Below are positions 38,135 through 56,827 of a DNA stretch of 64,000 nt, piece by piece. The notes under the pieces are model-generated. The model saw only the letters and a program-made list of their open reading frames with translations. It made no database searches and was not told where the DNA came from. Every line of letters begins with the position of its first letter. Within the stretch, counting starts at the first letter, position 1. Both the position numbers and the translations under genes were made by a program. Location of the stretch: positions 10,362-74,361 of the forward strand of contig NZBG01000034.1 in assembly GCA_002687795.1 (NCBI GenBank), read 5' to 3'. Origin of the DNA: Candidatus Woesearchaeota archaeon (lineage in GTDB: Archaea; Nanobdellota; Nanobdellia; Woesearchaeales; GCA-2687795).

Positions 38135-39640
38135 TTGGTAAATCAGATGGGAGACTATAACAAGATCATCACTCAGACAGGGATATCCTATCTGTTGAGG
38201 GTAGCAAGCATAGCAACAGCCTTTTTCTTGTTTATGATTCTTACAAGAAGGTTTACCCAGCAAACCTTTGGAGTCTATAATATAATAATCATCTCAATAT
38301 CATTACTTTCCCAGATATTAACCCTTGCCTTAAACAAATACATAAACAAAGAGTTTCCCGGAAGAGACAAGGAATACCAAAGGAAAGTTTTTTCAACAAT
38401 ATTTATCTTTATGGTAATGGTATTAATCTTTATTTCATCTTCATTATTGTTAGCAAGCTATTTTCTTGGAAATAATTTCTCGTTCATACAGGATTATGGA
38501 ACTGAGATAAGGCTTTCTATCTTGATTACTTTTTTCTGTGTGCTTTCATACCTTTTCGTCTCATACTTTGTGGGAAACAAGTTAGTGGAAATCAGGAGCC
38601 TTATATCCTATATAACCGAGCATCTCTGGGGCCTGATAATCATAGCAAGCATACTCGTTCTTCCTATAAACCTTAAGAATGTGCTTATAATAAGGCTGAG
38701 TGTTGTGGCTGCACTCTCATTATATCTTATTATATTACTGATCAGAAAGAATATCCTCACCTTTGATATCAAGGAATTTAACAGGACAATACTAAAGACC
38801 GCTTTGGTATTCAGCATTCCTCTGCTGCCTTTCATAGTAAGCAAATGGCTGATAAGCGCAACCGATAAATATATGATACTTTTTTATTTGGGTGCAGAAA
38901 AAGTAGGGCAATACTCTTATGTTTATTCTTTATTAAACATTGTTTACCTTTTTGTTAATATCCTGAACATCGTTATAGGACCCTATATATACCATGCCTG
39001 GAATATAAAGGACAGGATAAAGCTCAACCTTCTGTTGAATCTCCTGCTTAAGTACTGCCTGCTTCTGGGTATTCCTGCCATTATAGGCATATGGATCCTA
39101 GACAAAGAAATAGTTACGCTGGTTTCAGCTTTAAAATATATAAACGTTGTTTCTTTGATACCTTATCTCCTATTATTCCCATTGTTCCTTGTCCTGGCTA
39201 TTGCTCTCCAGCATGTATTAATCATTCAGAATAAAACCAAGCTCATAGGCATCATATACACAGCAGCCGCGGTGTTAAATATAGTGTTAAATATTATTTT
39301 GATCCCGAGACTCGGGATATATGGTGCTGCTATTGCCACAACAATTGCACACTTTTTGGTGTTCATGCTTATTTTCTTAAGTGTAAAGAAAGATATAGAA
39401 TTTAGATTTAATTTCATTAACCTGCATAAAATCCTTATAGCCTCCTTTTTCATGGCTTTTATAATAAACCTCTTCCATCCGGTTAATCTCTTTGCCAAGA
39501 TTTTCACAATAGGGTTAGGGGTATCATTATACGCCGGGGGGCTGTATTTATTAAAGACGTTTTCTAAAAAAGAAATAAGCACTTTCCTTGATTATCTTAG
39601 GGTGTTCAGGGAGAGAGCTAGACAGAAAGAGACCTTATAA
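38135..39640 (+). CDS. Wzx-like oligosaccharide flippase (MOP superfamily polysaccharide biosynthesis protein)
   Basis: 501 aa, about 12-14 TM helices, typical of Wzx/RfbX. Confidence 0.65.
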   Translation: MVNQMGDYNKIITQTGISYLLRVASIATAFFLFMILTRRFTQQTFGVYNIIIISISLLSQILTLALNKYINKEFPGRDKEYQRKVFSTIFIFMVMVLIFISSSLLLASYFLGNNFSFIQDYGTEIRLSILITFFCVLSYLFVSYFVGNKLVEIRSLISYITEHLWGLIIIASILVLPINLKNVLIIRLSVVAALSLYLIILLIRKNILTFDIKEFNRTILKTALVFSIPLLPFIVSKWLISATDKYMILFYLGAEKVGQYSYVYSLLNIVYLFVNILNIVIGPYIYHAWNIKDRIKLNLLLNLLLKYCLLLGIPAIIGIWILDKEIVTLVSALKYINVVSLIPYLLLFPLFLVLAIALQHVLIIQNKTKLIGIIYTAAAVLNIVLNIILIPRLGIYGAAIATTIAHFLVFMLIFLSVKKDIEFRFNFINLHKILIASFFMAFIINLFHPVNLFAKIFTIGLGVSLYAGGLYLLKTFSKKEISTFLDYLRVFRERARQKETL

Positions 39641-41817: not shown

Positions 41818-42975
41818 CTATTTAAGTAATCCTATTTTCTTCTTCAGAATATACCTGACTATATCATACCAGTTTTTCCCGCAGTCAGACCTGCATGTCC
41901 CGCAATAGCTCTTTATGTCTTTTCTTATAGCATCTGCCTTCTTGCTGAACCATATCCGGCTTAAATCTGTCTCAAGCGCATTGCCCAGCTTAGCGGATTT
42001 GTTGTTCATGCACATAAACACATCCCCATTATTCTCTATGAAGATTGTTGAGTATCCAAACACGCACCCCCTGCTTTTGCTTCTTCTTTTTCCCCAATAC
42101 ATATTGATTATATCGTTGGTGTACAGCTCTTCATATATCTGCTCCCCGGAAATCCTCTTTAAGAAAGCTGTTATCTTTTTTATCTGGCTGTCTGTAAATG
42201 TCAGCTCTTTATTCTTTGTGTTGCTGAAGAACGAGCTTGGGTTGATGATCAGATGGTTAAAGGCATATTCTAACTTGTTTGACTTGATGAACTCATATAT
42301 TTTATCAAGCTGGTGCACATTTGCAGGCTGGATAACACAGCCTATGGAAACACCAAGCTTACTGTTGCTTTTCTGGATTTTCTTAAGCTCTTCAAGCATA
42401 AGCATGGCATTATCGAACACAAAAGGCAGCCCCCTGACCTTATTATGCACTCCCTCCAAACCATCCAGAGACAGCCTGACATTCAGCTTTTCAAAATCCT
42501 GAGGGAGAATCTCTAAAATCCCTTTTATTTTTTCCAGGGCAGGCTTATAAGCAACACAATTAGTGGAGAAGCCTATTGTCTTGAGCTTTTTACATTTTTT
42601 TAGGGCTATCTTAACAATGCCCACCAGATCCTTCCTTAAAGTCGGCTCACCCCCGTAAAGGTGCAATGACTCTATTGAGTCTAAAAGCGGGTCAGAAAAT
42701 ATCTTTTCAATATCTTTGATGCCTAAATCATCCTCTGCTTTATCTTTCCAGACATTGCACATCAAACACTTTCCGTTGCACTTTTTTGTGACTGTAAATA
42801 TGCAGGCGTTTGGCTTTGAAGCTATTCCTCTCCCTGCCATGAAGCCTTTATAGATGCTTCTGGTTACCCTATTGACCCTCTTGTAAAAAACAGGTGTTTT
42901 AAGCATTATAGGTATCAGGATTCCTTGACTATTATTTAAGTTTTGTTGAAGTTTGTTTCTTAAGATATCATACAC
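41818..42975 (-). CDS. Radical SAM enzyme with a SPASM-like C-terminal Cys cluster
   Basis: FTVTKKCNGKCLMCNVW, a C-terminal SYCGTCRSDCGKNWYD, and an internal GCVFG...CMNN. Confidence 0.75.
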   Translation of the reverse strand: MYDILRNKLQQNLNNSQGILIPIMLKTPVFYKRVNRVTRSIYKGFMAGRGIASKPNACIFTVTKKCNGKCLMCNVWKDKAEDDLGIKDIEKIFSDPLLDSIESLHLYGGEPTLRKDLVGIVKIALKKCKKLKTIGFSTNCVAYKPALEKIKGILEILPQDFEKLNVRLSLDGLEGVHNKVRGLPFVFDNAMLMLEELKKIQKSNSKLGVSIGCVIQPANVHQLDKIYEFIKSNKLEYAFNHLIINPSSFFSNTKNKELTFTDSQIKKITAFLKRISGEQIYEELYTNDIINMYWGKRRSKSRGCVFGYSTIFIENNGDVFMCMNNKSAKLGNALETDLSRIWFSKKADAIRKDIKSYCGTCRSDCGKNWYDIVRYILKKKIGLLK

Positions 42976-43224: not shown

Positions 43225-44217
43225 ATGGAAAATAAGAAAGTATTAGTTACAGGCGCACCGGGATGGCTAGGCACAAGAGTAGTAGAAGTTCTATGTTCAA
43301 AAGGCTATGATGTAAGATGCTTTGCACTAAAAGGCCTTGATTTGTCCTCTTTAAAGAAGCTTAACGTGGAGACGGTTGAGGGGGATATAACCAAAAAGGA
43401 AACCATAACTGAGGCTGTTAAAGATATTCATACAGTGGTTCACTGCACTGGGCTGATCCACCCTAAGAAAATAAAAGAGCTCTATGATATCAATACCCAG
43501 GGCACTAAAAATATTCTGGAGAAATCTGCGGAAGCTGGTGTTAAAAAGTTTGTTTATATCAGCTCTAATTCTGCCCAGGGATGCAACATCAGGAGAAATA
43601 TGCTTATGAGGGAAGACCAGAAGGAAAAGCCTGAAAAGAGCTATGGCAAAAGCAAATACCTTGCTGAGAGGGCTGTAAGAAGTTTCCAGAATTCTGGGAA
43701 ACTCAACACTGTTATCCTAAGGCCATGCTGGTTTTATGGCCCCGGCCAGCCTGAGAGGCAGACAAGGCTGATGAAGATGGTAAAGGCAGGAAACCCTTTG
43801 ATCTTCGGCAATGGCAGAAACATAAGGAGCATGAGCTATATAGATAATATTGTTCAGGCAATCATCCTTTCTATGGAAAAGGATATTGCAAACGGAAAAA
43901 TATATTGGATAGCTGATAAAAGGCCTTATGAAACAATTGAGATATACAGGACAATAGCTGATATACTGGGAGTCAGGTTAAAGCCGCGTTATGTGCCAAA
44001 GATAGTTTCCCAGGTCCTGGAGATAGGAGATGATATCCTGCAGGCGCTTGGGTTTTATATCCAGGAGGTGCATGTAGGCGGAGAGCTTGTGAAGAACATT
44101 GCATGCGACATATCAAAAGCTGAAAAAGAGCTGGGGTATGATCCTAAGGTTGACCTGAAGGAAGGCATGAGAAGGTCCATTGAATGGGCAGAAAAGCAGG
44201 GTTATCTAAATGACTGA
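43225..44217 (+). CDS. NAD-dependent epimerase/dehydratase/reductase (extended SDR)
   Basis: VLVTGAPGWLGTRVVEVL and YGKSKYLAE (YxxxK). Confidence 0.8.
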   Translation: MENKKVLVTGAPGWLGTRVVEVLCSKGYDVRCFALKGLDLSSLKKLNVETVEGDITKKETITEAVKDIHTVVHCTGLIHPKKIKELYDINTQGTKNILEKSAEAGVKKFVYISSNSAQGCNIRRNMLMREDQKEKPEKSYGKSKYLAERAVRSFQNSGKLNTVILRPCWFYGPGQPERQTRLMKMVKAGNPLIFGNGRNIRSMSYIDNIVQAIILSMEKDIANGKIYWIADKRPYETIEIYRTIADILGVRLKPRYVPKIVSQVLEIGDDILQALGFYIQEVHVGGELVKNIACDISKAEKELGYDPKVDLKEGMRRSIEWAEKQGYLND

Positions 44218-45247
44218 GACATGCCTGGTAACAGGGGGCTCAGGCTTCTTCGGGACCCATCTTGTGAGGAAGCTTCTTGAAAAGAAAAGAAAGGTCAGGG
44301 TTTTTGATATAGCTGAGCCTGAGGAAGGTGTCAGGGGTAAAGTAGAGTTCTTTAAGGGAGATATAAGAGACTTTGATTCTGTTAACAAGACATGCAAAAA
44401 CATTGATGTTGTTTACCATACTGTTGCTGTTGTGCCCATCTCCAAAGCAGGCAAAAAGTTTGATGAGATTAATGCCGGCGGAACAAGAAATATTCTCGAG
44501 GCTGCCTTGAGGAACAAGGTAAAGTCTTTTGTGCATATATCAAGCACCGCTATCTATAAGGTTCCAAAGAAAGGAGATGTAATAACAGAAGACTATCCTA
44601 TAATGCCTGTAGGGGATTATGGCAGGGCAAAGTACCATGCTGAAAAGATATGTTTTGAATACATGAAAAAAGGTCTTAACATAACCATCCTAAGGCCAAG
44701 AACAATTATAGGAACAGGCAGGCTCGGCATATTCTCTATCCTGTTCGACTGGATAAGAAGAGGCAAAAATATCTATATTCTTGGCAATGGCAATAACCTT
44801 TTTTCCTATGTCAGCGCCTCAGATCTGGCTGAAGCCTCTATCCTGGCAAGCAAGAAGGGCTTTGGCTTATTCTTAAATATAGGCGCTGAAGAATACGGAA
44901 CTTTCAAGGGGGACCTTAAGAAACTGGTAAGGTATGCAAAAAGCAAGTCAAGGTTTGTAACCATAAACGCTGAGCTGACCAGGCTCATTTTGCAGGTGCT
45001 TGATAAGATTGGCTTATCACCTTTGACAGAATGGCATTATAAAACGGTTGACAAGGAATATGTGTTCGATGTGTCAAAAGCAAAGAAGGTTCTTGGATGG
45101 AAGCCAAAAGACAGCAACGAGAGAATGTTTAAAGATACCTATGACTGGTATCTTAAAAACTATAAACAGCTTGATAAGCGCATAGGAACAACCCATAGGT
45201 TTTCCGCAAAACAGGGAATATTAAAGCTGTTAAAGCTCTTTTCATAA
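44210..45247 (+). CDS. NAD-dependent epimerase/dehydratase/reductase (extended SDR)
   Basis: CLVTGGSGFFGTHLVRKLL and YGRAKYHAE. It has an 8-bp overlap with the upstream SDR gene. Confidence 0.8.
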   Translation: MTETCLVTGGSGFFGTHLVRKLLEKKRKVRVFDIAEPEEGVRGKVEFFKGDIRDFDSVNKTCKNIDVVYHTVAVVPISKAGKKFDEINAGGTRNILEAALRNKVKSFVHISSTAIYKVPKKGDVITEDYPIMPVGDYGRAKYHAEKICFEYMKKGLNITILRPRTIIGTGRLGIFSILFDWIRRGKNIYILGNGNNLFSYVSASDLAEASILASKKGFGLFLNIGAEEYGTFKGDLKKLVRYAKSKSRFVTINAELTRLILQVLDKIGLSPLTEWHYKTVDKEYVFDVSKAKKVLGWKPKDSNERMFKDTYDWYLKNYKQLDKRIGTTHRFSAKQGILKLLKLFS

Positions 45248-45262
45248 CCATTTTTCATAATT

Positions 45263-45907
45263 ATGATAAAGATAGACATACATGTGCATACAAAGTATTC
45301 CAGGGACAGCTTGCTTGAGCTTAAAACAATAAGCAAGCTCTGCTCAAGAAAAGGGATTATCCCTGTTATATCTGACCATAATTCTCTTAAAGGCGCGCTT
45401 CAGTACAGAAAGCTGTTCAAAGATTGCATAGTTGGGGAAGAGATCAACACCTCCCAGGGAGAGATAACAGCTCTTTTCTTAAACAATGAAATACCTTCCG
45501 GGCTGGATATTGATGCCACAATAGACAGGATAAGGGAGCAGGATGCTGTTTTATATGTTCCCCATCCCTTTGATTCATTAAGGAGGGAAACAATAAAAAC
45601 ATCAGCCCTTTCCAGGATTAAGCCTGATATCATAGAGGTCTTTAACTCCAGAACTGTTTTATCTGCCTCAAATAAAATGGCTAAAGAGTTTGCCATTAAG
45701 AACAAGTATCTGAAAGGCGTTGGCTCTGATGCGCACACCGGCAGAGAGATAGGGAATGCCTTTGCTGCTGTGGAGGATTTTAACCTTGATTCTAAGAAGG
45801 ATTTTCTCAGGAATCTCAAAGATGCAAAGTTTTACTGCAGGAAGTCAGGCCTTGCAGTGCATGCTGTCACCTTTTTTGAGAAAAGGCTTAAGCTCGTTAG
45901 AAAATGA
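45263..45907 (+). CDS. PHP-domain metal-dependent phosphoesterase
   Basis: MIKIDIHVHTKYSRDS ... VPHPFD ... GSDAHT, the His/Asp-rich PHP motifs. Confidence 0.55.
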   Translation: MIKIDIHVHTKYSRDSLLELKTISKLCSRKGIIPVISDHNSLKGALQYRKLFKDCIVGEEINTSQGEITALFLNNEIPSGLDIDATIDRIREQDAVLYVPHPFDSLRRETIKTSALSRIKPDIIEVFNSRTVLSASNKMAKEFAIKNKYLKGVGSDAHTGREIGNAFAAVEDFNLDSKKDFLRNLKDAKFYCRKSGLAVHAVTFFEKRLKLVRK

Positions 45908-45917
45908 ACCTTCTAAG

Positions 45918-46790
45918 TCAGTAATACACTATCAAAAAGCTGGATGCAAGCCATAGGACTATTCCTATCATCATCCTTATGTCAAAGAACACTTTCTCAG
46001 GATGCCTTGTAACTTCCGAGCCTTTCTCGATAAGGTACAAATACCTGAATATCACATAAAGCGCGAATGGAAGAGTAAGCACAAGGTACTGGTTTATGCT
46101 TAAGAAGCTGTACAGTGAATAAGACATGATCAGCAGGCTTGTGGAAATAACCATCAATGATTTTGTGATCGGCTTTGTATAAAAGCTGAAGACCTCTTTA
46201 TGCGAGACTGCTTTCTCCCCAAGGTAAACCAGGTCAGCCTCTCTCTTCCCTATAGAGATAAACAGGGAAAGAAAAAACACGCAGATGATAAGCCAGGGGG
46301 ACAGCCTTAGCCAGGGCATGCCATCAACCATTATAACAAACACCCCTGAAGCAGCCCTTACCACAAAGTTGACTGCTATTATTATAATATCAACAAAAGG
46401 CTCTTTCTTGAGAAAGAAAGAATAAAGCTGTGTAACCAGGAACAGGAACAATATAAACAGCAGGAAATATCCTGATAAGGATATCCCTATGCCAAGGGAT
46501 ACAATAAACAATGTTATTGCCAGTATTATCGCCTGCCAAACCTTTATCTTTCCTGAAGCCAGGGGCCTTAACCTCTTTTCAGGATGGTTGATATCCTTCT
46601 TTATATCCACTATATCATTGATTATATAATTCACAGACGAAATAAAACAAAGTGCCAGAAAGCCATAGAAAGTCTTTTCCAGTCCAACAAGGTTTAGAAG
46701 CTCACTGGCGAATATTATAGATAAAAATATTACCAGGTTCTTATACCACTGCCTTACTCTCATCAAATAGATTATATCTCTTAATTTCAT
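45918..46790 (-). CDS. UbiA-family polyprenyl-phosphate (phospho)glycosyl/prenyl transferase, DPPR-synthase-like
   Basis: 8-9 TM helices; YIINDIVDIKKDINHPEKRLRPLASGKI is the NDxxDxxxD motif; N-terminus RVRQWYKNLVIF. Confidence 0.65.
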   Translation of the reverse strand: MKLRDIIYLMRVRQWYKNLVIFLSIIFASELLNLVGLEKTFYGFLALCFISSVNYIINDIVDIKKDINHPEKRLRPLASGKIKVWQAIILAITLFIVSLGIGISLSGYFLLFILFLFLVTQLYSFFLKKEPFVDIIIIAVNFVVRAASGVFVIMVDGMPWLRLSPWLIICVFFLSLFISIGKREADLVYLGEKAVSHKEVFSFYTKPITKSLMVISTSLLIMSYSLYSFLSINQYLVLTLPFALYVIFRYLYLIEKGSEVTRHPEKVFFDIRMMIGIVLWLASSFLIVYY

Positions 46791-46804
46791 TCCAGAACAT
46801 AGAT

Positions 46805-48070
46805 TTACTTCTCCATTAAAAAACCTTTCGATGAGCTGGCTTCTGAACTGAATGCTGATTTACGCACAAACACGCCTTTTAGCAGCAGCTTAGACAGCTG
46901 CCTTGCATACTTCAGCCTCAGGAAGCTGAACAGGTTCCACTTCTTAACAGCAGGAGCAGCGCCGATCTTTTCTATATCTTTCATGGAAACCGTAAACGCA
47001 GCTGTCTTAGCCATCACCATAAGCAAAGAGAAGACCGCCAGGAGAAAAATAACAGGCCTTAGGTATACAAGATTCTTTATTGACAACGCCAAAGGTATGG
47101 CCAGGTATGGCAGCATTGATGCAATATACCTATGGTCTCTTGCATCTCCTCCCCACCAGGTTTTATGCTTTGAGATAAGAAGGAACAAAGGAAGGCAGAG
47201 AAGAGCAAACATAACAAGAAACTCCAAAGGAAGGTAATAAAAGCCAATAACCCCGAATATCAGCACAGGGCTGATCACAAAGATGCCGCCGTTCTTTATA
47301 GAGAAAAGCAGCCCGGTTATTCCTGAAAAGATTGGCGTGACAAATGTTGTGAAAGGCGAGTTTGACCATTTAAAGAATGCGCTGTGTTTGTAAGATGTTG
47401 TGAAAGGAGAGCCAAAACATATCTTGTTATAGAGGAAAAGAGGTGCAATGCCTATAACAAAGCCAATAACCAGGTAAGGTGTTGACCAGAAATCTCCCAA
47501 AATCAGTTTAGAGAGAACGATTCCTCCCAGATACATAACATTGGTGTATTCAACCATTGCAGCAAGCCCTATTATTATTCCTGCAAATACAGGACTTAGC
47601 CCTATCAACAGGCAATAGACAGCAGCCAGTATAAGGAAGGTTGACAAAGAATGTATAAAGAACACAACACTGTATCTCCAGTTCAGTGTGCTGAAGGCGA
47701 AAATAAGCGCTGTTACAAAAGATATTGAAGGGCTGTTAACCAGCATCTCCGCTATAAGATACACCAACACACAAGAAAATATCCCGGAAAGCCATGAAAC
47801 AAGAGTTACCGGAAGCCTAAGATAATGGAACACAACCGCTGCAAAAGCCAAACCAGGCGGCCTGTCTGTATAATAATTATCTCCTATTTTAGCATAGTCT
47901 ATTTCCTTTGTATACTTTGTGAAATCATTGATAGCTAATTTTTTCTTTTCAACAATCGCCCTCACCAAAGCAAACAGGCTTCCGTCATTAGAAGTAATTA
48001 TGCCCTTCATCGACAGGCCGTAAATAATCCCGACTATAACTATAAGCATAATCAAGAACAATTTTAACAC
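46805..48070 (-). CDS. Polytopic membrane protein; GT-C-like (polyprenyl-P-sugar dependent) glycosyltransferase candidate
   Basis: 421 aa, about 11 TM helices, with a first-loop acidic motif (SNDGSLFALV ... DYAKIGDNYYTDRPPG). Confidence 0.4.
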   Translation of the reverse strand: MLKLFLIMLIVIVGIIYGLSMKGIITSNDGSLFALVRAIVEKKKLAINDFTKYTKEIDYAKIGDNYYTDRPPGLAFAAVVFHYLRLPVTLVSWLSGIFSCVLVYLIAEMLVNSPSISFVTALIFAFSTLNWRYSVVFFIHSLSTFLILAAVYCLLIGLSPVFAGIIIGLAAMVEYTNVMYLGGIVLSKLILGDFWSTPYLVIGFVIGIAPLFLYNKICFGSPFTTSYKHSAFFKWSNSPFTTFVTPIFSGITGLLFSIKNGGIFVISPVLIFGVIGFYYLPLEFLVMFALLCLPLFLLISKHKTWWGGDARDHRYIASMLPYLAIPLALSIKNLVYLRPVIFLLAVFSLLMVMAKTAAFTVSMKDIEKIGAAPAVKKWNLFSFLRLKYARQLSKLLLKGVFVRKSAFSSEASSSKGFLMEK

Positions 48071-49158
48071 TTCCTATTCTCGCATTTTTGATATACCGGG
48101 CAATCTTCACAGACTTTAGGGGTCTGCCCTGATCTCAGCATTTTTCTTAATGCTGTGAACTTTTTCCCGTACCATATCTCTCTAAATGGTGTTTCAAAAA
48201 CATTGCCCATGCTGGTCTTTTTCTGGAACTCTCTCCTGTTTGCCTCATTCTCAGCGCAGCATGGTATAACATGCCCGGTAACAAATATATAAGGCATTGC
48301 CCATGCAATACAGTTGTTCATTGTTACCTTATTGCAGTCAGCCTTTGTGTTAAGGTTCCATAGGATTGTCTGCTTGCATTCTTCGCCAACTTTATCTACC
48401 CTTTTTATCTGCTCCTTGGTTATCTTTGTATTGATATCCTTAATCTCTTCAAATTCATGAAGGTTGTTTGTAAACTGTATATGCTCATTTTTTGGGCAGA
48501 TTCTGGCGATTAGCCTCACAAAATCCTCCATCTCATGCTGGTTGATCTTATTCACAATATAATGGAATGCAATCAACGGCAGCTTTGTGCCTCTCTTCTT
48601 TTTCTCTCTGGTGAAATTTTTTATATTCTCAACCACTGTTTCGTAATTAGAGCCAACCCTGATTTTCTCATAGGTTTCTTTTGTTGTCCCGTCCATTGAA
48701 ACATAAACCTTATCAATTTTTGCATCAAAGATTTTTGACAGGATTTCAGGAGTCATTTTACAGAAAGAATCGAATATCTCTGTATACTGCCCCTTCTTTT
48801 TTGAATACTCAAGCATCTTTGGAAAATCTTTGTTGAGAAGGTTGTTGCCTATGCCGCTAAAGCCTACCCAGGTTAGCGAAGGTATCTGGTCTATTATCTT
48901 CTTGTACTCGTCAAGGCTCATCAGCTTTGGCTTTTCATCCCAGTATGTATGCTCGCATTCTATACAACGAAGATCGCAATAAGTGCTGATTTCAATCTCA
49001 ATATAATAAGGCATTGGAACTTTTTTATAGAACATATCAACAATTCTCTTATTATGCCTCATATACAAAGGCCAGTATCTTAAATGCCTGTATGTAAACC
49101 CCAGGCCTCTCTCCTTCAGGAGATAGTACACGTTCCTTATCCTTCTCAAAAACATCAT
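48064..49158 (-). CDS. Radical SAM enzyme with a SPASM-like C-terminal Cys cluster
   Basis: IEISTYCDLRCIECEHTYW and a C-terminal CCAENEANRREF...CEDCPVYQKCENRKC. Confidence 0.75.
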   Translation of the reverse strand: MMFLRRIRNVYYLLKERGLGFTYRHLRYWPLYMRHNKRIVDMFYKKVPMPYYIEIEISTYCDLRCIECEHTYWDEKPKLMSLDEYKKIIDQIPSLTWVGFSGIGNNLLNKDFPKMLEYSKKKGQYTEIFDSFCKMTPEILSKIFDAKIDKVYVSMDGTTKETYEKIRVGSNYETVVENIKNFTREKKKRGTKLPLIAFHYIVNKINQHEMEDFVRLIARICPKNEHIQFTNNLHEFEEIKDINTKITKEQIKRVDKVGEECKQTILWNLNTKADCNKVTMNNCIAWAMPYIFVTGHVIPCCAENEANRREFQKKTSMGNVFETPFREIWYGKKFTALRKMLRSGQTPKVCEDCPVYQKCENRKC

Positions 49159-49198: not shown

Positions 49199-50062
49199 CT
49201 AAACATTATGATCCCTGCCAAAAAGCCTTTCATAATATTTTTGGGCAGTGTTTGACTTGGCATGTATGATAAAGGAAGCCAGCTGGTTTAAAGTAAAAAA
49301 AGAGCCATATACCACTAAAAACCAGTATAAAAAGCTCCATCTTGGGACAAGCATGACAGACTTATTAATGTATTCCAGGATTATCAGCAGCAATATAATC
49401 AGCTTATCATAAGGGCAGACCCATAAAAAGTTCATCTTCTCGCTGATTTTATACAAAAAGCCAAACTTTCCGGTTGCCTCGCCAATCTTTGAAAGCTTGT
49501 TCTCTTTTTTTGTGTTTTGTCTGATATTAATACCTTCCTTGCTGTCTTCCATACTCTTGATTGCTTCAAGCCTCTTGTTCACTATGGTCCATGTAAGGGC
49601 CATGAACACCACCGAAGCTGAAAACACAACAGCCAGAAACCCGAAGATAAGGGCTGAGATTTTTGCTGTATTCAGAAAAACAGAAAACGCTATCCCAAAA
49701 TACATGAACTTGGGAAGAAACTGGTGAGATATCTCATCAATATGCACTCCAAGGATGCTTGTCTGTTTCCTGTACCTTGCGATCTCGCCATCCACTGTGT
49801 CAAGGATAAAACCGAAATTCATAAGCAATATCCCTATCAGCATATATTCCAATGTCCCAAAGAAAAGGAGGACTGCGCCAAGAAGGGTTATCAATATATG
49901 AAAGACAGTGACCTGGTTAGCTGTAATAGAGGTGTACAGGAAAAGTTTGGTGATATAAATAGATATTTTCCTAATAAAATATTTCTGGTATAAAGGATGT
50001 TTCTGCTCTTCCCATCCCCTTATCCTGCACTTCTCTTTTAATACTGAAATTGGTTCTGTCAT
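49199..50062 (-). CDS. CDP-alcohol phosphatidyltransferase-family membrane protein
   Basis: DTVDGEIARYRKQTSILGVHIDEISH matches D-G-x2-A-R-x8-G-x3-D with the last D replaced by H. It has multiple TM helices. Confidence 0.55.
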   Translation of the reverse strand: MTEPISVLKEKCRIRGWEEQKHPLYQKYFIRKISIYITKLFLYTSITANQVTVFHILITLLGAVLLFFGTLEYMLIGILLMNFGFILDTVDGEIARYRKQTSILGVHIDEISHQFLPKFMYFGIAFSVFLNTAKISALIFGFLAVVFSASVVFMALTWTIVNKRLEAIKSMEDSKEGINIRQNTKKENKLSKIGEATGKFGFLYKISEKMNFLWVCPYDKLIILLLIILEYINKSVMLVPRWSFLYWFLVVYGSFFTLNQLASFIIHAKSNTAQKYYERLFGRDHNV

Positions 50063-50116: not shown

Positions 50117-50977
50117 CTACAGCCTGGCATGAATCCTTGTCAGGATATCCTTATCAACATCCAAGCTCCCTATATCCCCCCTTATATCCCCATGAAAGTC
50201 TGTTCCTCCTGATTCCAGAAGGTTCCTCTTTTCTGCAATTGATTTAAAGAGCTGGTTTTTTGCTATGCTTTCTTCTTTGGGAGTTTTGTTTATAACATCA
50301 TAAGGATAATAAGTCTCAATACCTTCACCGCCATTCTTAATAAAAAGGTCTATCAACTCTGCTGCATCCTTGTCGGAATATACCCCCGGATGCGCAAGAA
50401 AGCACAGGCCTCCGGCAGCCTTGATAACATCTATCGCCTCTTTCATTCTTATCTTAAGCGTTCTTTCAACATAAGCAGGCTTTCCGGTTCCTATATACTG
50501 GTCGAACACATCCTTAATAGTGGAGAATTTATCTGGGTATCTCTTTAACAAAAGCCTTGCGATATGAGGCCTTCCGAAAGAGCCTTTCACTGATTTGCTC
50601 ACTTCCTCAAATGTTATATCAAAGCCTAACTCATTCAGTTTTCTGATGATTTCTTTCTTTTGCTTTATTCTGTCCTGCCTTATCTTATCTGTCAGCTCAA
50701 GCAGTCTTTTATTCCTGAAATCAATAAACAACCCTATAATATGAACATTAACAAAACCCAGTTCTTTCTCATCACAGCCGAACTCAATGCCCGGAACAAG
50801 CTCAAGCCCTATATTATTTTTTGTTATATGCCTTAAAGCAGGCTCTATACCGCTAACTGTGTCATGGTCTGTGACAGCAATTGTTTTCATTCCCCTTTCA
50901 ACTGCCCTGTCAACCACCTGCTCAGGCGTAAAAGTGCCATCTGATTTATCCGTATGTATATGAAGATCGATTTTCAT
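50117..50977 (-). CDS. PHP-domain metal-dependent phosphoesterase
   Basis: MKIDLHIHTDKSDGTFTPEQVVDRAVERGMKTIAVTDHDTVSG and a C-terminal GGTDFHG. Confidence 0.7.
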   Translation of the reverse strand: MKIDLHIHTDKSDGTFTPEQVVDRAVERGMKTIAVTDHDTVSGIEPALRHITKNNIGLELVPGIEFGCDEKELGFVNVHIIGLFIDFRNKRLLELTDKIRQDRIKQKKEIIRKLNELGFDITFEEVSKSVKGSFGRPHIARLLLKRYPDKFSTIKDVFDQYIGTGKPAYVERTLKIRMKEAIDVIKAAGGLCFLAHPGVYSDKDAAELIDLFIKNGGEGIETYYPYDVINKTPKEESIAKNQLFKSIAEKRNLLESGGTDFHGDIRGDIGSLDVDKDILTRIHARL

Positions 50978-51612
50978 TTTATGTTTAATAAAGAGATTAA
51001 TTGATTTGCTAACTTCTCGAATCTTTCTTTGCCAATCATTACCTTTCTGACAGGCTTCATCTTCACAAACTCTTCACCTGTTCCTGAGTCCTTATGCACC
51101 TCTTTTCTTCCAAAGGAACTGTCCACTGTATAAGGCTGGCCTATATCTCCCCTGAAAGGAAATACTTTGATATGAAGATGCTCTTTCTTTTCTTTCCAGT
51201 TTGTGCATTTTCCATAGGTTGCCATGGAAACTGCATCTTCCTTTGACTCTGATGTTACCTTAAACCCTTTATTCTCAGCTGCCATGAGCCCGGCCATAGC
51301 ATTGCATACCTTAGAGAAAGCTGTTCCATAGTTTTCAGCCAGTTTAGGGTAATTGCTTACCTGGCAGAAATGGGTCAGATGCGCCTGGGGCATTAGCTGT
51401 ATAGTAAAATCCTGCTCAGGGTCTCCGCCGGTTTTAGGGGACAAAGTGGCAAACCAGCTGTCTTCAGCAGAGCTGCCTATCCTGAAAACAATAACAGCTC
51501 CGTAATCTGTTCTTTGCCCAACTTTCAGTGAAGATTCACTGCAAAGATTACAATCTTTATGCAAAGAGGCGTCTTCTTTTATTAGCCCATTAATATTATC
51601 ATTCATTTTCAA
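50974..51612 (-). CDS. HIT-like/GalT-like nucleotide-binding protein (tentative)
   Basis: An N-terminal CNLC pair and an EHLHIKVFPF (H-x-H-x-K) motif resembling HIT/GalT HxHx[HQ]. It has 4-bp and 14-bp overlaps with its neighbours. Confidence 0.3.
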   Translation of the reverse strand: MKMNDNINGLIKEDASLHKDCNLCSESSLKVGQRTDYGAVIVFRIGSSAEDSWFATLSPKTGGDPEQDFTIQLMPQAHLTHFCQVSNYPKLAENYGTAFSKVCNAMAGLMAAENKGFKVTSESKEDAVSMATYGKCTNWKEKKEHLHIKVFPFRGDIGQPYTVDSSFGRKEVHKDSGTGEEFVKMKPVRKVMIGKERFEKLANQLISLLNIK

Positions 51613-52708
51613 CTGGCTTTATGAATTCCTTCTCCCTTCTTTCATCAACATAAGCATCAAAATATCCCACCACAAGCCTGTAATAATTCTCTTTATTCTT
51701 AGCGCTGACTTTCTCAAGGATTCCGCATGCCCTAAGCTTCTCCCCAGGATGAGCAAGCATTGCATAATCCCTTGAATAGAATACAATCTTCTTTATCTTA
51801 TTGTTTATGCCTTCTAATTTTAAGCCGTTGCCATCTATTACTTTTGCATCCTTTATATCATAACATCCAGGCCTTACAATAGAGTTATGGCTGTCTGTTA
51901 CAATGCCTTCAATGGCTGCTAACCCTAATGAGGAATATTGCTCTTCCCCCCATTTGAACCAGACCTCCTCTTCCTTCTCAGTCGCAAAGATTACAAAAAG
52001 GCAGCCATTAAAATATCCTTCTGATTTCCTCTTCCTCATTATGCGCAGGAAACCATCCTCGCTGAATATCCCAAACCTGTTCCTTTTCTTATAGAAATCC
52101 AGCCATTCTTCGTCTGTCTTCCACTTCAGTGAAGGATGCTCTGCTGTCTCAAGGTATTTCATAAGCTTCCAGAAGTTCTCTTTGCCATAGACCACAATGT
52201 TTATATCTGATATGTTTGACATGTAATGCCCCATTAGGGTTGAGTATGTTATGCCAAGGTCCTTTATCCTCAGGCCGCTTCCTATAAAGAAGCTCACGAG
52301 CTCATGAACAGTCTTAAGGTGTTCATCAAGCGCTTCCTTTGGCATTGCCATAAGCTCTGAAAGACCTCTCCTGGGGAAATATATTCTTTCTATATCATCA
52401 ACAGGCACTGTGAAAAAAAGCCTTTCCTCAGTATGCTGGGGGCTTTCAAGCATATAATGCGGATATGCCTCTTTGAACTGCTCAATATATGTTTTCAGCT
52501 TTGCCTTGTCAATCCAGAGGTTGAGCCTGTTCATCTTTCTCCCTGAGATGAACCTGTATTGCAGTGCATCTGACTCAATCTTGCCTGTGGGAATATACTT
52601 TGGCTTTACAAGTATGCTGCTCATGGGATGCTCATTCCCATAAACCTGGCAATGCAGGCCGTCCTTTGTTGTTATGATTGATGATTCATAGAAGTGCATA
52701 TTATTCAA
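51599..52708 (-). CDS. Pol-beta-superfamily nucleotidyltransferase-fold protein (LicD/fukutin-like phosphotransferase candidate), tandem paralogue 2
   Basis: LGITYSTLMGHYMSNISDINIVVYGKEN carries a G...DhDh minimal-NTase motif. It shares end-to-end similarity with 52701..53804. Confidence 0.35.
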   Translation of the reverse strand: MNNMHFYESSIITTKDGLHCQVYGNEHPMSSILVKPKYIPTGKIESDALQYRFISGRKMNRLNLWIDKAKLKTYIEQFKEAYPHYMLESPQHTEERLFFTVPVDDIERIYFPRRGLSELMAMPKEALDEHLKTVHELVSFFIGSGLRIKDLGITYSTLMGHYMSNISDINIVVYGKENFWKLMKYLETAEHPSLKWKTDEEWLDFYKKRNRFGIFSEDGFLRIMRKRKSEGYFNGCLFVIFATEKEEEVWFKWGEEQYSSLGLAAIEGIVTDSHNSIVRPGCYDIKDAKVIDGNGLKLEGINNKIKKIVFYSRDYAMLAHPGEKLRACGILEKVSAKNKENYYRLVVGYFDAYVDERREKEFIKPVENE

Positions 52709-53804
52709 CCTCTGCTTTTATGTATTCTTTCTCTCTTCTGTCAGTTAGATAGGCATCAAAATAGCCAACAACAACGCGATAATATCTGCTCCCATCCTTT
52801 GCTGTTACCAGCTCAAGCAGGCCGCATGCTTTTACTCGTTCTCCTTTAAGCGCCTGCTGTATGAAAGGTATAGAATATGTTACAATTCTCTTTATAGGAA
52901 TCTCCTTGTTAAGCTTTAGGGCTTCACTCTCTCCTTCAACTATCTCCCCTTCTTCTATCTCATAATAACCAGGCCTTACATGGCTGTTGTAATGGTCTAT
53001 GACTTTTCCCCTTATTGTTGCTGTTCCAACTGGTTCATAGATTTCCTCACCCCATTTGAACCATGTTTCATCCGGCTCCTCAACAGTAAACAATGTAAAG
53101 ACAGTTCCTCCGAAAGTGCCTTCATACCTTTTCCTTCCCATATGCTTTACATACTCCTTCTCTGTAAAATGGGATGACTCTGATGTCTTATGTTCTTTAT
53201 AATATTCAGCCCATTCTTCATCAGTTTTCCATTTTAGCTTATCATGCGCTGCTGTTTTAAGGTAATCAAGAATTTTCCAGCCGTTTTCTTTTCCATAAAT
53301 AATGATATCTATGTCTGACTCCCCGGGAGTGTAGTTGGCCATTAAAGTGGAATGTGTTATGCCTAAATTATCAGGGCTTACTCCGCTCCTACACAGAAAA
53401 TCAACCAATTCCCTTACCAGTGTTAGGTATTCATCCAGGTCTTTCTTAGGCACTTTTAATAATTCGCCTAAACCTTTCCTTCCGTCATGGACAGTCTTTA
53501 TCTTTTCTTTTGGAACAACAAAGAACCAGTTCTTATGGACAGGAGAATCATAGATATAGCCAGGAAACTTTTTTCTGAACTGTTCTAAGTAATTAACGAG
53601 CTTTTCTTTTTCTGCGAACAGATTAAACCTCACAAGGCATTTCTCAAACAAAAACCTGTATTTCAGGCCCTCTCCCTCTATTGCTTCCTTGGGGATATAC
53701 TTTGGCTTAACGATTACATAGCCTTCAGGATGCTCGTTTCCATATGACTTACACTGGAAACCGTCTGTTGTGTCTATTAATGTTGATTCATAGAAGTGCG
53801 TCAT
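52701..53804 (-). CDS. Pol-beta-superfamily nucleotidyltransferase-fold protein (LicD/fukutin-like phosphotransferase candidate), tandem paralogue 1
   Basis: LGITHSTLMANYTPGESDIDIIIYGKEN; the N-terminus HFYESTLIDTTDGFQCKSYGNEHP is conserved with paralogue 2. Confidence 0.35.
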   Translation of the reverse strand: MTHFYESTLIDTTDGFQCKSYGNEHPEGYVIVKPKYIPKEAIEGEGLKYRFLFEKCLVRFNLFAEKEKLVNYLEQFRKKFPGYIYDSPVHKNWFFVVPKEKIKTVHDGRKGLGELLKVPKKDLDEYLTLVRELVDFLCRSGVSPDNLGITHSTLMANYTPGESDIDIIIYGKENGWKILDYLKTAAHDKLKWKTDEEWAEYYKEHKTSESSHFTEKEYVKHMGRKRYEGTFGGTVFTLFTVEEPDETWFKWGEEIYEPVGTATIRGKVIDHYNSHVRPGYYEIEEGEIVEGESEALKLNKEIPIKRIVTYSIPFIQQALKGERVKACGLLELVTAKDGSRYYRVVVGYFDAYLTDRREKEYIKAEVE

Positions 53805-55183
53805 TTTGTCACCTCTATTGGTTTTGCGGTTATATCATCCGGAATCTTCAGGCCTAATAGCCTCAAAATAGTTGGCGCTACCTGCTTTATGTCAATATCA
53901 TCTATTTGCCCTTTACAGGCAACCCATTTTCCGCTTATTATGAAACAGCCCTGCCTCGAATGGCCTGCGTTATCTGCGCCCACCGCACTTTCCCATGAAT
54001 ATAGGCCTTCCTGGCCAAGGTCAGGGTTTGAGGCCCATCTTAGCTCATCAAAGTAAACTATTAAGTCAGGGCATTCTCTGCTGGATGGATCTTTGTAGAT
54101 ATCTTCAGAAGAATAAACCTTTGTGTCAAGCTTTTTTCCTTTGTCATTTGGGATGTTCTCCAGTTTTTTTATTAGCTCCTTCTTTACTTTATTATAGTCT
54201 GCGCCAACAACCTTTCTGTTAATATAGACTCTTGCATTATATGCGCCGCCGCCGTATGCAACTGTTTTGTCCATGTCCACAAACTTTGTGTCAAACCTCT
54301 TCTTTTCGCTTAGGTCTATGCCTTCTTTAAGGACAAGATAGCCTTCCTTTGCCAGCCAGTTGTTGATATTGATTTTCCCTTCCTGCTTGAACATCCCATG
54401 GTCTGAGGCAACGATAATAATTGTATCATCATCAAGCAGCTCCATTATCTCGCCAAGCTTTTTATCAAGGTAAATGTAATAGTCTTTCAGGGCATCTTTA
54501 TGAGGTGAGTCTTTGATGAATCTTCTGTGTGTATCATCAAAATGCCTCCAGAGCATATGCTGCAGCCTGTCAGTTCCTATCATAACACTTATGAAGAAAT
54601 CCCATGACTCATTGGCAAGAAGGTCTTTTAAAAGCTCTATCTGCATATCAGTCATCTCATAAGTCCTCTCAAGCAGAGTGCTTATATCAAGGGACTTATG
54701 GCCTGCTAAGCCAACCGCAACGTCAAAGAAAATCTCAGGGTTTCCTTTAGAGATTATTTTTTCTCTTATCTTTTCAGGATAAGCGCAGTCGCTCTCAACA
54801 CCAGGTGTCAAGAACCCGCTGACCATGCAGCCGTTTACCTGCTTTACAGGAAAGGTCAAAGGCACATACAAGGCAATGCTCTTTTTATCCTGCTCTCCCA
54901 GGATGTCCCAAAGCAGTTTGCATTTTATGCTTCCTGAATTGGCTAATCTTGAATTTCCATCCTCATCTTTGTATGTATAGCTGAACACTCCTATTTGGCT
55001 TGCATCCTTCCCTGACAACATAGAATTCCAGGCTATTATTGTAGAAGGAGGTATTGTGCTGTTTACTTTAGCATAAGCTCCTGTGTCCATAAGTCTCTTT
55101 ATGTTCGGCAGTTCATTGTTCCATCTGCCAAAGATAAGTTCAGGCGGTGCTCCGTCAATTCCAAAAATAAAAACCTTGCTCAT
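53801..55183 (-). CDS. Alkaline-phosphatase-superfamily type I phosphodiesterase/nucleotide pyrophosphatase-like enzyme
   Basis: VFIFGIDGAPPEL...TIPPSTIIAWNSMLSG...IVASDHGMF. Confidence 0.6.
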   Translation of the reverse strand: MSKVFIFGIDGAPPELIFGRWNNELPNIKRLMDTGAYAKVNSTIPPSTIIAWNSMLSGKDASQIGVFSYTYKDEDGNSRLANSGSIKCKLLWDILGEQDKKSIALYVPLTFPVKQVNGCMVSGFLTPGVESDCAYPEKIREKIISKGNPEIFFDVAVGLAGHKSLDISTLLERTYEMTDMQIELLKDLLANESWDFFISVMIGTDRLQHMLWRHFDDTHRRFIKDSPHKDALKDYYIYLDKKLGEIMELLDDDTIIIVASDHGMFKQEGKININNWLAKEGYLVLKEGIDLSEKKRFDTKFVDMDKTVAYGGGAYNARVYINRKVVGADYNKVKKELIKKLENIPNDKGKKLDTKVYSSEDIYKDPSSRECPDLIVYFDELRWASNPDLGQEGLYSWESAVGADNAGHSRQGCFIISGKWVACKGQIDDIDIKQVAPTILRLLGLKIPDDITAKPIEVTK

Positions 55184-55195: not shown

Positions 55196-56314
55196 CTACA
55201 TTTCTTTTTCAAGCAAAGGCCATAGCTTTTCTTCTATGTCAAGCCCTTTCCCTGCAAGATTATTCTTTTCGTCCGGGTCGTTCTTCATGTCATAAAGCTC
55301 TCTCTTATTGGTGCTGGTGTTGATAATAAGCTTCCAGTCTTCAGTCCTTATTGCTTTCACGTTCGGCTTCTTGGGGGAAGGCGCAGGCCCTCCTAAGCCG
55401 CCTGTCTCAGAAAATGCTATTCTGCTCTTCTCATCAGGGTTTCCTAAGAAAGGCATCAGGCTTGAGCCCCTGAACTCTTGTTCATTGAAATTTATCTTCA
55501 GCATATCCAGGATAGTGGGCATTATATCCACGCTCCTTACAAGCTTGCTTACTTCCAGCTCAGGAAATCTTTCTTTATTAAGAAACAATGCAAAAGTGTT
55601 CAGCGTATAATCATAGCAAAAGCTGCCATACACCTTTTCCCCTGCCCTTTCCCCTGTGCTTGTTCCATGGTCTGATGCAAGGATTATCACAGAGTTTTCA
55701 ATAAGGCCCTTTTTCTCCAGCTCATCAAAGATTGATTTCAGGTAAGCATCAGCTTCCTTGACATACGAGGAAAACATCTTCTGGTTGCCTTCCCTGTTGC
55801 TGAAATACTCCTCGCTGGTGTCTGTGTATTTCTTGACAACATTCTTAACAATAAGGTTATGGACAATGCTGCAGTGGAGATAAACGAACAAAGGCTTTTT
55901 TATATCCTCTACTGTGTTCAGAATATTCTTGTGCCTTGCTATCATCTCTTCTGCGTTCTCTATCACCTTCTCTTCTTCAAAACCTTTCTGTATTGTTAAC
56001 ACATCAAAACCCTGCCCTGGGATAACCATATCATTCATTGCATCCCCTATGGTGAAATAGCCATGCTCTTTAAGAAACTGGGGCAATGTCCTGCATTCTT
56101 TCCTGAAATTAGGCGCTCCATAATAATTATCAACCCCTGTCTCTTTTCCATACTTGCCTGTGAAAATAGAATGCAGGGATGCTATTGAGTATGGCGCATA
56201 GGCAAACATCCTGTTGAACAATGTACCCTGTAAGGTTGAGAAAAAAGGCATATCCTTTATCGTATCATGCCTTACACCATCAACCAATATAAAAATAATG
56301 TTTGGCTTGTCCAT
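55196..56314 (-). CDS. Sulfatase-fold (alkaline-phosphatase-superfamily) hydrolase/transferase that lacks the C/S-x-P-x-R formylglycine motif
   Basis: NIIFILVDGVRHD ... YSIASLHSIFTGKY (Ser where sulfatases have Cys, with no P/R) ... ILASDHGTSTGE. Confidence 0.55.
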   Translation of the reverse strand: MDKPNIIFILVDGVRHDTIKDMPFFSTLQGTLFNRMFAYAPYSIASLHSIFTGKYGKETGVDNYYGAPNFRKECRTLPQFLKEHGYFTIGDAMNDMVIPGQGFDVLTIQKGFEEEKVIENAEEMIARHKNILNTVEDIKKPLFVYLHCSIVHNLIVKNVVKKYTDTSEEYFSNREGNQKMFSSYVKEADAYLKSIFDELEKKGLIENSVIILASDHGTSTGERAGEKVYGSFCYDYTLNTFALFLNKERFPELEVSKLVRSVDIMPTILDMLKINFNEQEFRGSSLMPFLGNPDEKSRIAFSETGGLGGPAPSPKKPNVKAIRTEDWKLIINTSTNKRELYDMKNDPDEKNNLAGKGLDIEEKLWPLLEKEM

Positions 56315-56315
56315 T

Positions 56316-56752: not shown

Positions 56753-56827
56753 TTGGAAGGTCATTAACTGGTATTCTGCTGCATAGAACGCTGGGGTTAA
56801 GTTAAATAAGCCGCTTATTAAGAAATA

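Follow-up and report, generated by a model that had tools for sequence, protein, structure and literature searches.

Whether an archaeon of the DPANN group could build a lipid-linked pentofuranose from phosphoribosyl pyrophosphate (PRPP) is the question raised by positions 43225–48070 of a 64-kb stretch of Candidatus Woesearchaeota DNA, the whole of which is called the window here. Five genes listed there by the initial annotation were all found at the coordinates it gave when the open reading frames (ORFs) were checked. These encode two short-chain dehydrogenases/reductases, SDR1 (43225–44217, plus strand, 330 aa) and SDR2 (44210–45247, plus strand, 345 aa), a PHP-family metal phosphoesterase (45263–45907, plus strand, 214 aa), a UbiA-family protein (45918–46790, minus strand, 290 aa) and a polytopic membrane protein presumed to be a GT-C glycosyltransferase (46805–48070, minus strand, 421 aa). 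The module probably builds a PRPP-derived pentofuranose on a polyprenyl monophosphate, presumably dolichyl monophosphate in archaea, for the glycosylation of a surface glycan or protein. This reading is favoured because of the conserved ligands of UbiA, the phosphatase slot beside it, the partnering of SDR2 with UbiA, the GT-C fold and a bacterial precedent (PMC11127046).

The ORFs were scanned with Pfam and NCBIfam models, the structure of the membrane protein was predicted using AlphaFold2 and compared with the Protein Data Bank (PDB) using Foldseek, and phmmer was run against the PDB. The UbiA protein (PF01040, E 2.5e-25) was assigned to a branch of its superfamily by model and profile scores from NCBIfam, phmmer and a family profile. 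The phmmer search aligned Rv3806c (8j8j) to UbiA residues 6–283 with an E value of 1.1e-26, compared to 1.2e-3 for the digeranylgeranylglyceryl phosphate synthase (DGGGPS) 6m31. A profile of 25 DPANN homologues scored Rv3806c at 165 bits, AfUbiA at 45, DGGGPS at 32, and both chlorophyll synthase and ApUbiA at 18. Among the NCBIfam models, those for decaprenyl-phosphate phosphoribosyltransferase (DPPR transferase) were the best by a wide margin, although both scores fell under the curated equivalog cut-offs (NF008977, 181 bits vs 234; NF008978, 144 vs 207); the DGGGPS, UbiA, MenA-type and heme O synthase models reached 17–34 bits against cut-offs of 180–353. The initial annotation had likened UbiA to Rv3806c and had named grouping with DGGGPS or the quinone prenyltransferases as the opposing outcome; the scores came out for the Rv3806c branch, at 165 bits compared to 45 for the best prenyltransferase. 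Judged from sequence, UbiA is thus an Rv3806c-type phosphoribosyltransferase homologue of the polyprenyl(dolichyl)-phosphate 5-phosphoribosyltransferase type (PPPRS/DPPRS) and not a DGGGPS or a quinone prenyltransferase. The identical sequence in NCBI already carries the name 'decaprenyl-phosphate phosphoribosyltransferase', which the automated pipeline has also given to archaeal homologues.

According to the cryo-EM study of Rv3806c, which lists its PRPP ligands, other UbiA enzymes do not conserve the phosphoribose sites (PMC10994848). The Rv3806c ligands R22, K28, Y70, N73, D77, K87, R90, Y138 and K143 are identical in the window protein. The pyrophosphate-binding Lys/Arg cluster (R22, K87, R90, K143 and Y138) corresponds to R11, K72, R75, K128 and Y123, and the 5'-phosphate ligands K28 and Y70 correspond to K17 and Y55; Y157 is replaced by F142, and a Phe in this place is also found in some mycobacteria. 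The NDxxDxxxD motif reported by the initial annotation (NDIVDIKKD) could be located at residues 58–66, in keeping with the Mg/ribose ligands Asn73 and Asp77, and N58, D59, D62 and D66 are invariant across the 25 DPANN homologues. Nine of the 12 PRPP, Mg and 5'-phosphate ligands are kept across the same homologues, seven of them invariant and two nearly so.

The arrangement of the genes was analysed in the window and in related loci. The SDR1 and SDR2 reading frames overlap by 8 bp and form with PHP a single co-directional unit that converges on UbiA, the stop codons lying 10 bp apart. UbiA is the final gene of a long minus-strand string that runs through a second PHP-family gene (PHP2), a CDP-alcohol phosphatidyltransferase-family membrane protein (49199–50062, 287 aa; PF01066, E 2.5e-10), which is a possible accessory, a radical S-adenosylmethionine (radical-SAM)/SPASM enzyme (48064–49158, 364 aa; Pfam Radical_SAM and SPASM) and GT-C. 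The radical-SAM/SPASM gene overlaps the start of the GT-C gene, and UbiA, GT-C and PHP all lie inside 2.8 kb.

For comparison, 80 DPANN loci with a UbiA orthologue (46–58% identity) were taken and their neighbouring genes were clustered. The first pattern (12 loci) comprised a GT2 protein with transmembrane (TM) segments, a thioredoxin-like protein, a PMT_2-type GT-C and UbiA; in nine of these 12 loci a PAP2 phosphatase gene comes directly before UbiA or after it, just as Rv3807c is paired with Rv3806c. The second pattern (eight loci) was made up of DUF362, an FAD amine-oxidase-like protein, PHP, a further DUF362 and UbiA, and the third (six loci) of an SDR2-type gene, a second SDR, the FAD protein and UbiA. 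A fourth, mixed pattern included L077, in which SDR-SDR-PHP-UbiA resembles the window, and L035, in which UbiA stands with SDR2, PAP2, the FAD protein and an SDR. Five homologues of the window GT-C were also examined by locus (L081, L083, L084, L085 and JGI 3300072015). Four of the five lie within 4 kb of a UbiA gene and three directly adjoin it; three of these four loci carry radical-SAM/SPASM, GT-C, UbiA, SDR1, SDR2 and then PAP2, and the fourth has a single SDR2-type gene. Radical-SAM/SPASM orthologues (36–59% identity) adjoin GT-C in L081, L083, L084 and JGI 3300072015 and stand 3.5 kb away in L085.

Outside DPANN, the best matches to the UbiA protein in a tblastn search of plasmids were found on haloarchaeal megaplasmids. 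In Haloterrigena sp. KLK7, Halostagnicola larsenii XH-48 and Natronococcus sp. CG52, UbiA is followed by PHP and then by a protein with an LPG_synthase_TM domain, and a GT-C and an SDR2-type SDR lie next to these genes. Identities to the window proteins are 35% for UbiA, 31–33% for PHP, which belongs to the same PHP family, and 36% for the SDR2-type protein. These clusters differ from the window in having neither SDR1 nor the radical-SAM/SPASM gene, in a GT-C of another family and in the LPG_synthase_TM-domain protein after PHP; no published function for them was found in the literature searched. A deltaproteobacterial contig (L088) carries UbiA, SDR1, SDR2, a 505-aa membrane protein without a Pfam match and a CDP-alcohol (CDP-OH_P_transf) transferase. 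Because these genes are found together repeatedly, in DPANN, in haloarchaea and in bacteria, their clustering is more than chance and the gene set is a real module.

Both SDRs of the window are of the extended type, matching the Epimerase and 3Beta_HSD families with E values of 1e-32 to 1e-41, and both keep the GxxGxxG and YxxxK motifs. Their nearest solved relatives are NSDHL, GalE and MoeE5, and also dTDP-glucose dehydratases. SDR1, the second oxidoreductase of the tandem, has 3Beta_HSD as its best Pfam match, and its best NCBIfam matches, HpnA and OleD, are far under the cut-offs. SDR2, of the Epimerase family, has a conserved Asp at the end of beta-2 and is the candidate epimerase for a lipid-phosphate-linked ribofuranose. 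The residue after beta-2 was considered as an indicator of NAD or NADP preference; in SDR1 it varies between Lys and Glu among orthologues and no cofactor is claimed. SDR2 orthologues stand by UbiA in eight DPANN loci, in L081, L084 and L085, and in the deltaproteobacterium L088; in the loci of the GT-C relatives their identity is 47–68%. The haloarchaeal SDR2 is 36% identical over its full length and scores 326–332 bits against the hidden Markov model, the conserved C-terminal tail included. SDR1 orthologues (56–68% identity) occur in an identical SDR1-then-SDR2 tandem in L081, L083 and L084 and likewise in the bacterial loci L086, L088 and L095; SDR1 is absent from the three haloarchaeal clusters examined. 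The tandem adjoins a UbiA gene or a remnant of one in seven of the eight tandem loci with enough flanking sequence. SDR2 is thus seen to be retained as a partner of UbiA proteins of this type in DPANN, Halobacteria and one deltaproteobacterium, and it is probably a self-sufficient, GalE-like epimerase, since it occurs alone in the haloarchaeal clusters. The last 25 residues of SDR2 form a tail, G-[TV]-[TS]-H-R-x3-KQG-x-L-x5-F, common to the DPANN, haloarchaeal and bacterial proteins; it may form a helix for association with the membrane, as would be fitting for an enzyme with a lipid-linked substrate.

A bacterial system with comparable components has been shown biochemically and consists of a PPPRS, a phosphatase, an SDR epimerase, a flippase and a GT-C (Kelly et al. 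2024, PMC11127046). In Citrobacter youngae O1/O2 these are ORF15 (PPPRS-HAD), ORF14 (MATE flippase), ORF12 (GT-C/GT136) and ORF13 (SDR epimerase), and in O2 the single GalE-like SDR, ORF13, turns undecaprenyl-phosphate-linked ribofuranose into the xylofuranose form (PMC11127046); for the window SDRs this is a nearer precedent than DprE2. The bacterial GT-C adds an alpha-pentofuranose outside the cell, the cytoplasmic SDR epimerase is optional, and 'more elaborate systems' with several epimerases were described in the same study (PMC11127046). The initial annotation had regarded this logic as one of Actinobacteria, a view now outdated by its establishment in Gram-negative bacteria (PMC11127046). 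By its published description, the Citrobacter system appears to share with the window a PRPP-dependent UbiA type, a dedicated phosphatase, an extended SDR and a GT-C. The window differs in its archaeal host, in a separate PHP protein instead of a fused HAD domain, in two tandem SDRs and in a radical-SAM/SPASM partner; its GT-C, from a family of short (421-aa) proteins, matches no Pfam model and lacks a carbohydrate-binding module, and neither a MATE nor an SMR flippase could be clearly linked to the module.

The alternative that survives best is the mycobacterial decaprenylphosphoryl arabinose (DPA) pathway proper, in which the two SDRs would carry out the 2'-oxidation and reduction of DprE1/DprE2 and the product would be lipid-phosphate-linked D-arabinofuranose. 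The number of steps fits, with UbiA, a phosphatase, two oxidoreductases and a GT-C; SDR1 resembles keto-reductases (3Beta_HSD, HpnA and OleD), and SDR2 keeps the NAD-type Asp after beta-2. However, when every non-nested ORF of 150 aa or more in the 64-kb window was scanned with Pfam, no DprE1-type flavoenzyme (FAD_binding_4/VAO) was found. The DprE2-type 2'-keto reduction suggested by the initial annotation is also not borne out, as both proteins are extended SDRs of 330–345 aa and neither matches the classical DprE2 type of about 250 aa, adh_short being under its cut-off. The occurrence of SDR2 alone in haloarchaea points to a self-contained epimerase, and xylofuranose, formed by epimerisation at C3, is the product of the one extended SDR characterised so far as a PPPRS partner (PMC11127046). 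With neither DprE1 nor DprE2 homologues found in the window, the arabinofuranose-donor logic put forward initially is not implied, and this pathway is considered unlikely. In sequence, the resemblance to DPA synthesis (Rv3806c, Rv3807c, DprE1, DprE2 and the Emb/Aft GT-C enzymes) would lie in the homology to Rv3806c over residues 6–283, the PRPP ligands kept and the GT-C as end user; sister DPANN loci also have PAP2 (Rv3807c family) directly after UbiA. The window itself has PHP instead of PAP2, its carrier is presumably dolichyl phosphate instead of decaprenyl phosphate, and its product need not be arabinofuranose. Since DprE1, DprE2 and, in the window, PAP2 were looked for and not found, the module is not to be filed as a DPA or arabinose pathway.

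It is distinctly improbable that UbiA and the phosphatase alone make a lipid-phosphate-linked ribofuranose for GT-C and that the SDRs are neighbouring nucleotide-sugar epimerases or dehydratases of the surrounding glycosylation genes. The closest solved relatives of the SDRs do include GalE, MoeE5 and the dTDP-glucose dehydratases, many members of the SDR2 family occur without UbiA, and 12 DPANN loci have GT-C and UbiA (with PAP2 in nine of the 12) without an SDR, which implies that such a pathway works without one. These points are countered by two observations: in three archaeal or bacterial lineages whose neighbours are otherwise different, SDR2 is no more than 4 kb from UbiA and usually next to it or one gene away, and the SDR1-SDR2 tandem stands beside UbiA or its remnant in seven of eight loci. 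SDR2 was tried as a specific pathway marker and rejected, as a metagenome scan returned many members of 35–40% identity without UbiA within 8 kb.

The step after UbiA would call for a phosphatase, and PHP is the candidate lipid-phosphate-ribose-5-phosphate 5'-phosphatase. It matches Pfam PHP_C at 6e-11 and PHP weakly at 3.5e-4. Its metal-binding set (HxH, H, E, H, DxH) is intact as H7, H9, H39, E60, H101, D156 and H158, and 15 UbiA-linked homologues show no variation at H7, H9, D38, H39, E59, E60, H101, D156 and H158. Of 81 DPANN loci, 15 have a PHP-family gene and 11 a PAP2 gene no further than 6 kb from UbiA, and no locus has both. This exclusivity was dropped as a statistic, because zero overlap in 81 loci corresponds to a hypergeometric P of 0.09, and the argument consequently rests on shared position in otherwise orthologous clusters. 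PAP2 of the Rv3807c family holds the position of PHP in the clusters of the closest GT-C relatives, PHP is the gene right after UbiA in all three haloarchaeal plasmids, and on a Lactococcus plasmid a likely GT-C, a DPPRS, an HAD phosphatase and GtrA stand in this order. Depending on the lineage, the gene beside a UbiA of this type thus encodes PAP2, HAD or PHP, which agrees with the phosphatase role that the initial annotation had proposed for PHP.

Alternatively, the 214-aa PHP protein could hydrolyse some other phosphoester, the 5'-phosphatase being PHP2 (50117–50977, minus strand, 286 aa; Pfam PHP 4e-15) or an enzyme encoded elsewhere. PHP2, a protein like RNase RNM and 3',5'-bisphosphate nucleotidase (NCBIfam RNase RNM, 174 bits, under the cut-off), is an alternative candidate, as its gene is part of the UbiA and GT-C transcription string and PHP is on the opposite strand. 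It also resembles enzymes acting on ribose phosphates, namely pAp phosphatase and phosphoribosyl cyclic phosphodiesterase (E 1e-19), and a PHP fragment pair stands beside an SDR2 homologue without UbiA in L087. Little credence is given to this assignment, considering that PHP2 accompanies UbiA in one other locus only (L031), whereas members of the 214-aa PHP family are found with UbiA in 15 DPANN loci and, as the gene right after it, on three haloarchaeal plasmids.

The 421-aa membrane protein had no Pfam match, its sole NCBIfam match was weak (LA_3751/2, E 2.7e-5), and none of about 20 close DPANN homologues matched Pfam. Its designation as a GT-C enzyme could not be verified by sequence and was confirmed by the structure model. 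The AlphaFold2 model had a predicted local distance difference test score (pLDDT) of 88.5 and a predicted TM-score (pTM) of 0.90, and the top 19 Foldseek matches in the PDB were all of the GT-C fold, 18 being lipid-linked-sugar transferases and one a GPI-transamidase subunit. ArnT led these matches (5f15, E 4.7e-5, TM-score 0.57), and ALG12, ALG3, ALG9, STT3, PimE, DPY19, EmbB and Pmt4 were among the others. In the model, TM1 spans residues 2–19 and is followed by helices and a hairpin at 27–68, in keeping with the small outer-face domain expected of GT-C enzymes. In the loop after TM1, D58 is nearly invariant and a (D)RPPG motif is largely kept, with G73 invariant and R70 and P72 nearly so. 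The GT-C fold of the protein is thus confirmed at the level of the predicted model, and no named Pfam family was matched, so that it appears to belong to an unclassified family, GT136 being outside this comparison. NCBI gives a 401-aa form of the protein that starts 20 codons downstream, and the longer form begins at GTG. The deposited start is probably too short, because the TM helix at residues 2–19 in the GTG-start form (pLDDT about 96) is conserved in homologues.

The remaining alternative, that UbiA is a conventional prenyltransferase (DGGGP synthase, quinone or heme type) in a cluster unrelated to PRPP, can appeal to superfamily membership, the shared Asp-rich motif and the generally poor understanding of DPANN lipid metabolism, and it is very improbable given prenyltransferase models at no more than 34 bits compared to 181 for DPPR transferase, a DGGGPS profile score of 32 compared to 165 for Rv3806c, the conserved Lys/Arg cluster found where prenyltransferases have their second Mg site, and neighbours that are phosphatases and GT-C enzymes and not lipid-core genes.

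The favoured PRPP-derived pentofuranose pathway would therefore remain as the framework for the module, and from it we infer the catalytic steps, lipid carrier, sugar and acceptor. First, the UbiA-type enzyme would move ribose-5-phosphate from PRPP onto the lipid phosphate at the cytoplasmic face. The cytoplasmic PHP metallo-phosphoesterase would then strip the 5'-phosphate, a step for which the counterparts would be PAP2 (Rv3807c) in mycobacteria and HAD domains in enterobacteria. SDR2, as a GalE-like extended SDR, would epimerise a ring hydroxyl via a keto intermediate, and SDR1 would perform a second redox step or complete that of SDR2. A flippase would carry the donor outward, and GT-C, the presumed user of the lipid-phosphate-linked pentose, would place the pentofuranose on an acceptor outside the membrane. 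By analogy, the logic of the module most likely matches that of the bacterial three-component systems and of mycobacterial DPA synthesis.

A possible donor flippase is the MOP-superfamily (MatE/Polysacc_synt) protein encoded at 38135–39640 (plus strand, 501 aa), 3.6 kb upstream of SDR1, with weak Pfam matches to MatE (1.5e-6) and Polysacc_synt (1.1e-5). The LPG_synthase_TM-domain proteins of the haloarchaeal clusters (L169, 10590–11588; L170, 10561–11526; L171, 7496–8476) lie directly after UbiA-PHP, and a flippase role for the lipid-linked donor, like that of the MprF flippase domain, would fit them. A fusion of an LPG_synthase_TM domain with a methyltransferase is encoded in the window at 13958–15457, 30 kb from the module.

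Several observations weigh against the pathway as proposed. At the level of UbiA, besides the shortfall from the equivalog cut-offs, the ribose O3 ligand Gln135 aligns to Q121 by phmmer and to T120 by MAFFT, one position off, and the cleft residue Lys208 is not conserved, aligning to E199 with K198 adjacent. Neither phosphatase is within 6 kb of UbiA in 55 of the 81 DPANN loci, and the exclusivity of PHP and PAP2 is by itself not significant. Many of the more distant members of the SDR2 family lack UbiA within 8 kb; two bacterial SDR2 homologues have no intact UbiA within 7 kb, L086 holding only a truncated UbiA remnant, and the bacterial locus L087 pairs its SDR2 homologue and PHP fragment pair with a Bac_transf gene and has no UbiA. 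The 13-kb locus of the closest relative of the window GT-C (L083) is likewise without UbiA. No conserved flippase was found for the window, a MOP gene being near UbiA in one of the 80 loci. Finally, the window is a dense glycosylation island, and some of the adjacency could be incidental.

The family assignments, the ligand conservation, the GT-C fold and the synteny are direct observations, and they set the module beside two further known systems. The D-arabinofuranosylation of type IV pilin in Pseudomonas aeruginosa uses PsPA7_6245-6249 and TfpW (bioRxiv 10.1101/2020.04.19.049825). That set, which modifies a surface protein, is like the window in its DPPRS homologue, phosphatase and GT-C; it also has homologues of DprE1/DprE2 and Rv3807c, none of which was found in the window. 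Its flippases are of the small SMR/GtrA or ArnE/F type, and some DPANN loci have paired EamA-like genes after UbiA. ArnT is the best structural match of the window GT-C and also moves a pentose from a polyprenyl monophosphate donor; its Ara4N donor, however, is derived from UDP-glucuronate via ArnA, ArnB and ArnC and not from PRPP, and the window GT-C is only 13–14% identical to it. The initial annotation had held that an archaeal analogue would be new. No archaeal version of the pathway was found described in the literature searched, though the NCBI pipeline already names UbiA. The new elements would be the archaeal host, the PHP-type phosphatase, the tandem extended SDRs, the unclassified GT-C family and the radical-SAM partner, their functions being those proposed above.

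A bolder extension is that the SDR1-SDR2 tandem, perhaps together with the radical-SAM/SPASM enzyme, leads to a pentofuranose unseen in any glycan on a DPANN surface, with PHP as a third, so far unrecognised class of lipid-phosphate-ribose-5-phosphate phosphatase that extends over the Archaea. Taken as a whole this is a long shot. The candidates for such a sugar would be D-lyxofuranose, through inversion at C2 and C3, or a keto, deoxy or branched pentose; D-lyxofuranose has been noted as never found (Kelly et al., PMC11127046).

Further neighbours of UbiA could be observed in the DPANN loci. A DUF362 protein of about 356 aa directly adjoins UbiA in 29 of the 80 loci (e.g. L010, L014 and L057), often in two copies around the FAD amine-oxidase-like gene and PHP. 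Between SDR2-type genes and UbiA, an FAD-dependent Amino_oxidase-family protein (about 423 aa) and an SDR of the 'SDR-B' clade are encoded in L039, L047, L054, L055, L060, L063, L022 and L035. Though not homologous to DprE1/DprE2, these two could correspond to that oxidase-reductase pair; the Pfam family of this FAD protein also includes carotenoid-type desaturases. Paired small proteins with four TM segments, EamA-like and of about 121 aa, stand by UbiA in L022, L029, L007, L016, L047, L054, L055 and L060. These pairs recall the ArnE/ArnF or GtrA-type flippases for bacterial lipid-linked pentoses, and they are also syntenic with SecD/SecF, so that the link to UbiA may be incidental. UbiA orthologues are also carried by many third-party annotation (TPA) assembly records labelled 'uncultured Methanosarcinales archaeon' (L007, L011, L017, L024 and others), in neighbourhoods indistinguishable from those of Woesearchaeota/Nanoarchaeota metagenome-assembled genomes; the taxonomic labels of these records may be wrong.

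The glycosylation island that fills the window includes an STT3/AglB oligosaccharyltransferase, several GT2, GT9, PMT_2 and YfhO-like enzymes, a DegT/hexapeptide-transferase/Gfo trio, deacetylases and seven radical-SAM genes. The oligosaccharyltransferase (507–3968, 1153 aa) lies at the left end, as does a protein of 1023 aa (6331–9402) that weakly matches an Ig-like domain (Big_5) and could be a surface-protein acceptor. Four of the radical-SAM genes are B12-binding (18251–19666, 19718–21151, 22472–23917 and 35003–36493) and genes of this type recur in the related loci L081–L085; the others are at 32841–33917 and, with SPASM domains, at 41818–42975 and 48064–49158. Their abundance suggests heavy radical-based glycan modification, e.g. 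C-methylation. Three successive proteins without a Pfam match (212, 369 and 367 aa) are encoded in the region 50974–53804, taken with 50117–50977 and 53801–55183; the 369-aa and 367-aa proteins are paralogues of each other. The three are conserved with PHP2 and a Phosphodiest-family enzyme beside the UbiA of L031, and together with PHP2 they may form a sub-module. The G+C content drops to 0.315 at 56001–58000, compared to about 0.40 in the flanks; this low-GC region, which holds a Polbeta/NTP_transf_2 nucleotidyltransferase gene (57543–58160), breaks up the island and may be an inserted toxin-antitoxin-type element. The tRNA and Rfam scans gave no matches.

PRPP-derived, lipid-linked pentofuranose donors were long held to be a mycobacterial speciality and were found in 2024 to be widespread in Gram-negative bacteria. 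After that finding the module is not conceptually surprising, yet it would extend the pathway to a new domain and predicts a new phosphatase class. If the proposed pathway is true, it reaches the Archaea, both the uncultured DPANN and cultured haloarchaea, and PHP is a third, unrelated phosphatase family beside PAP2 and HAD. The culturable haloarchaea Halostagnicola, Haloterrigena and Natronococcus make the prediction experimentally accessible. For DPANN archaea, it is a prediction on the surface glycans of envelopes that are almost unstudied and that matter for host attachment.

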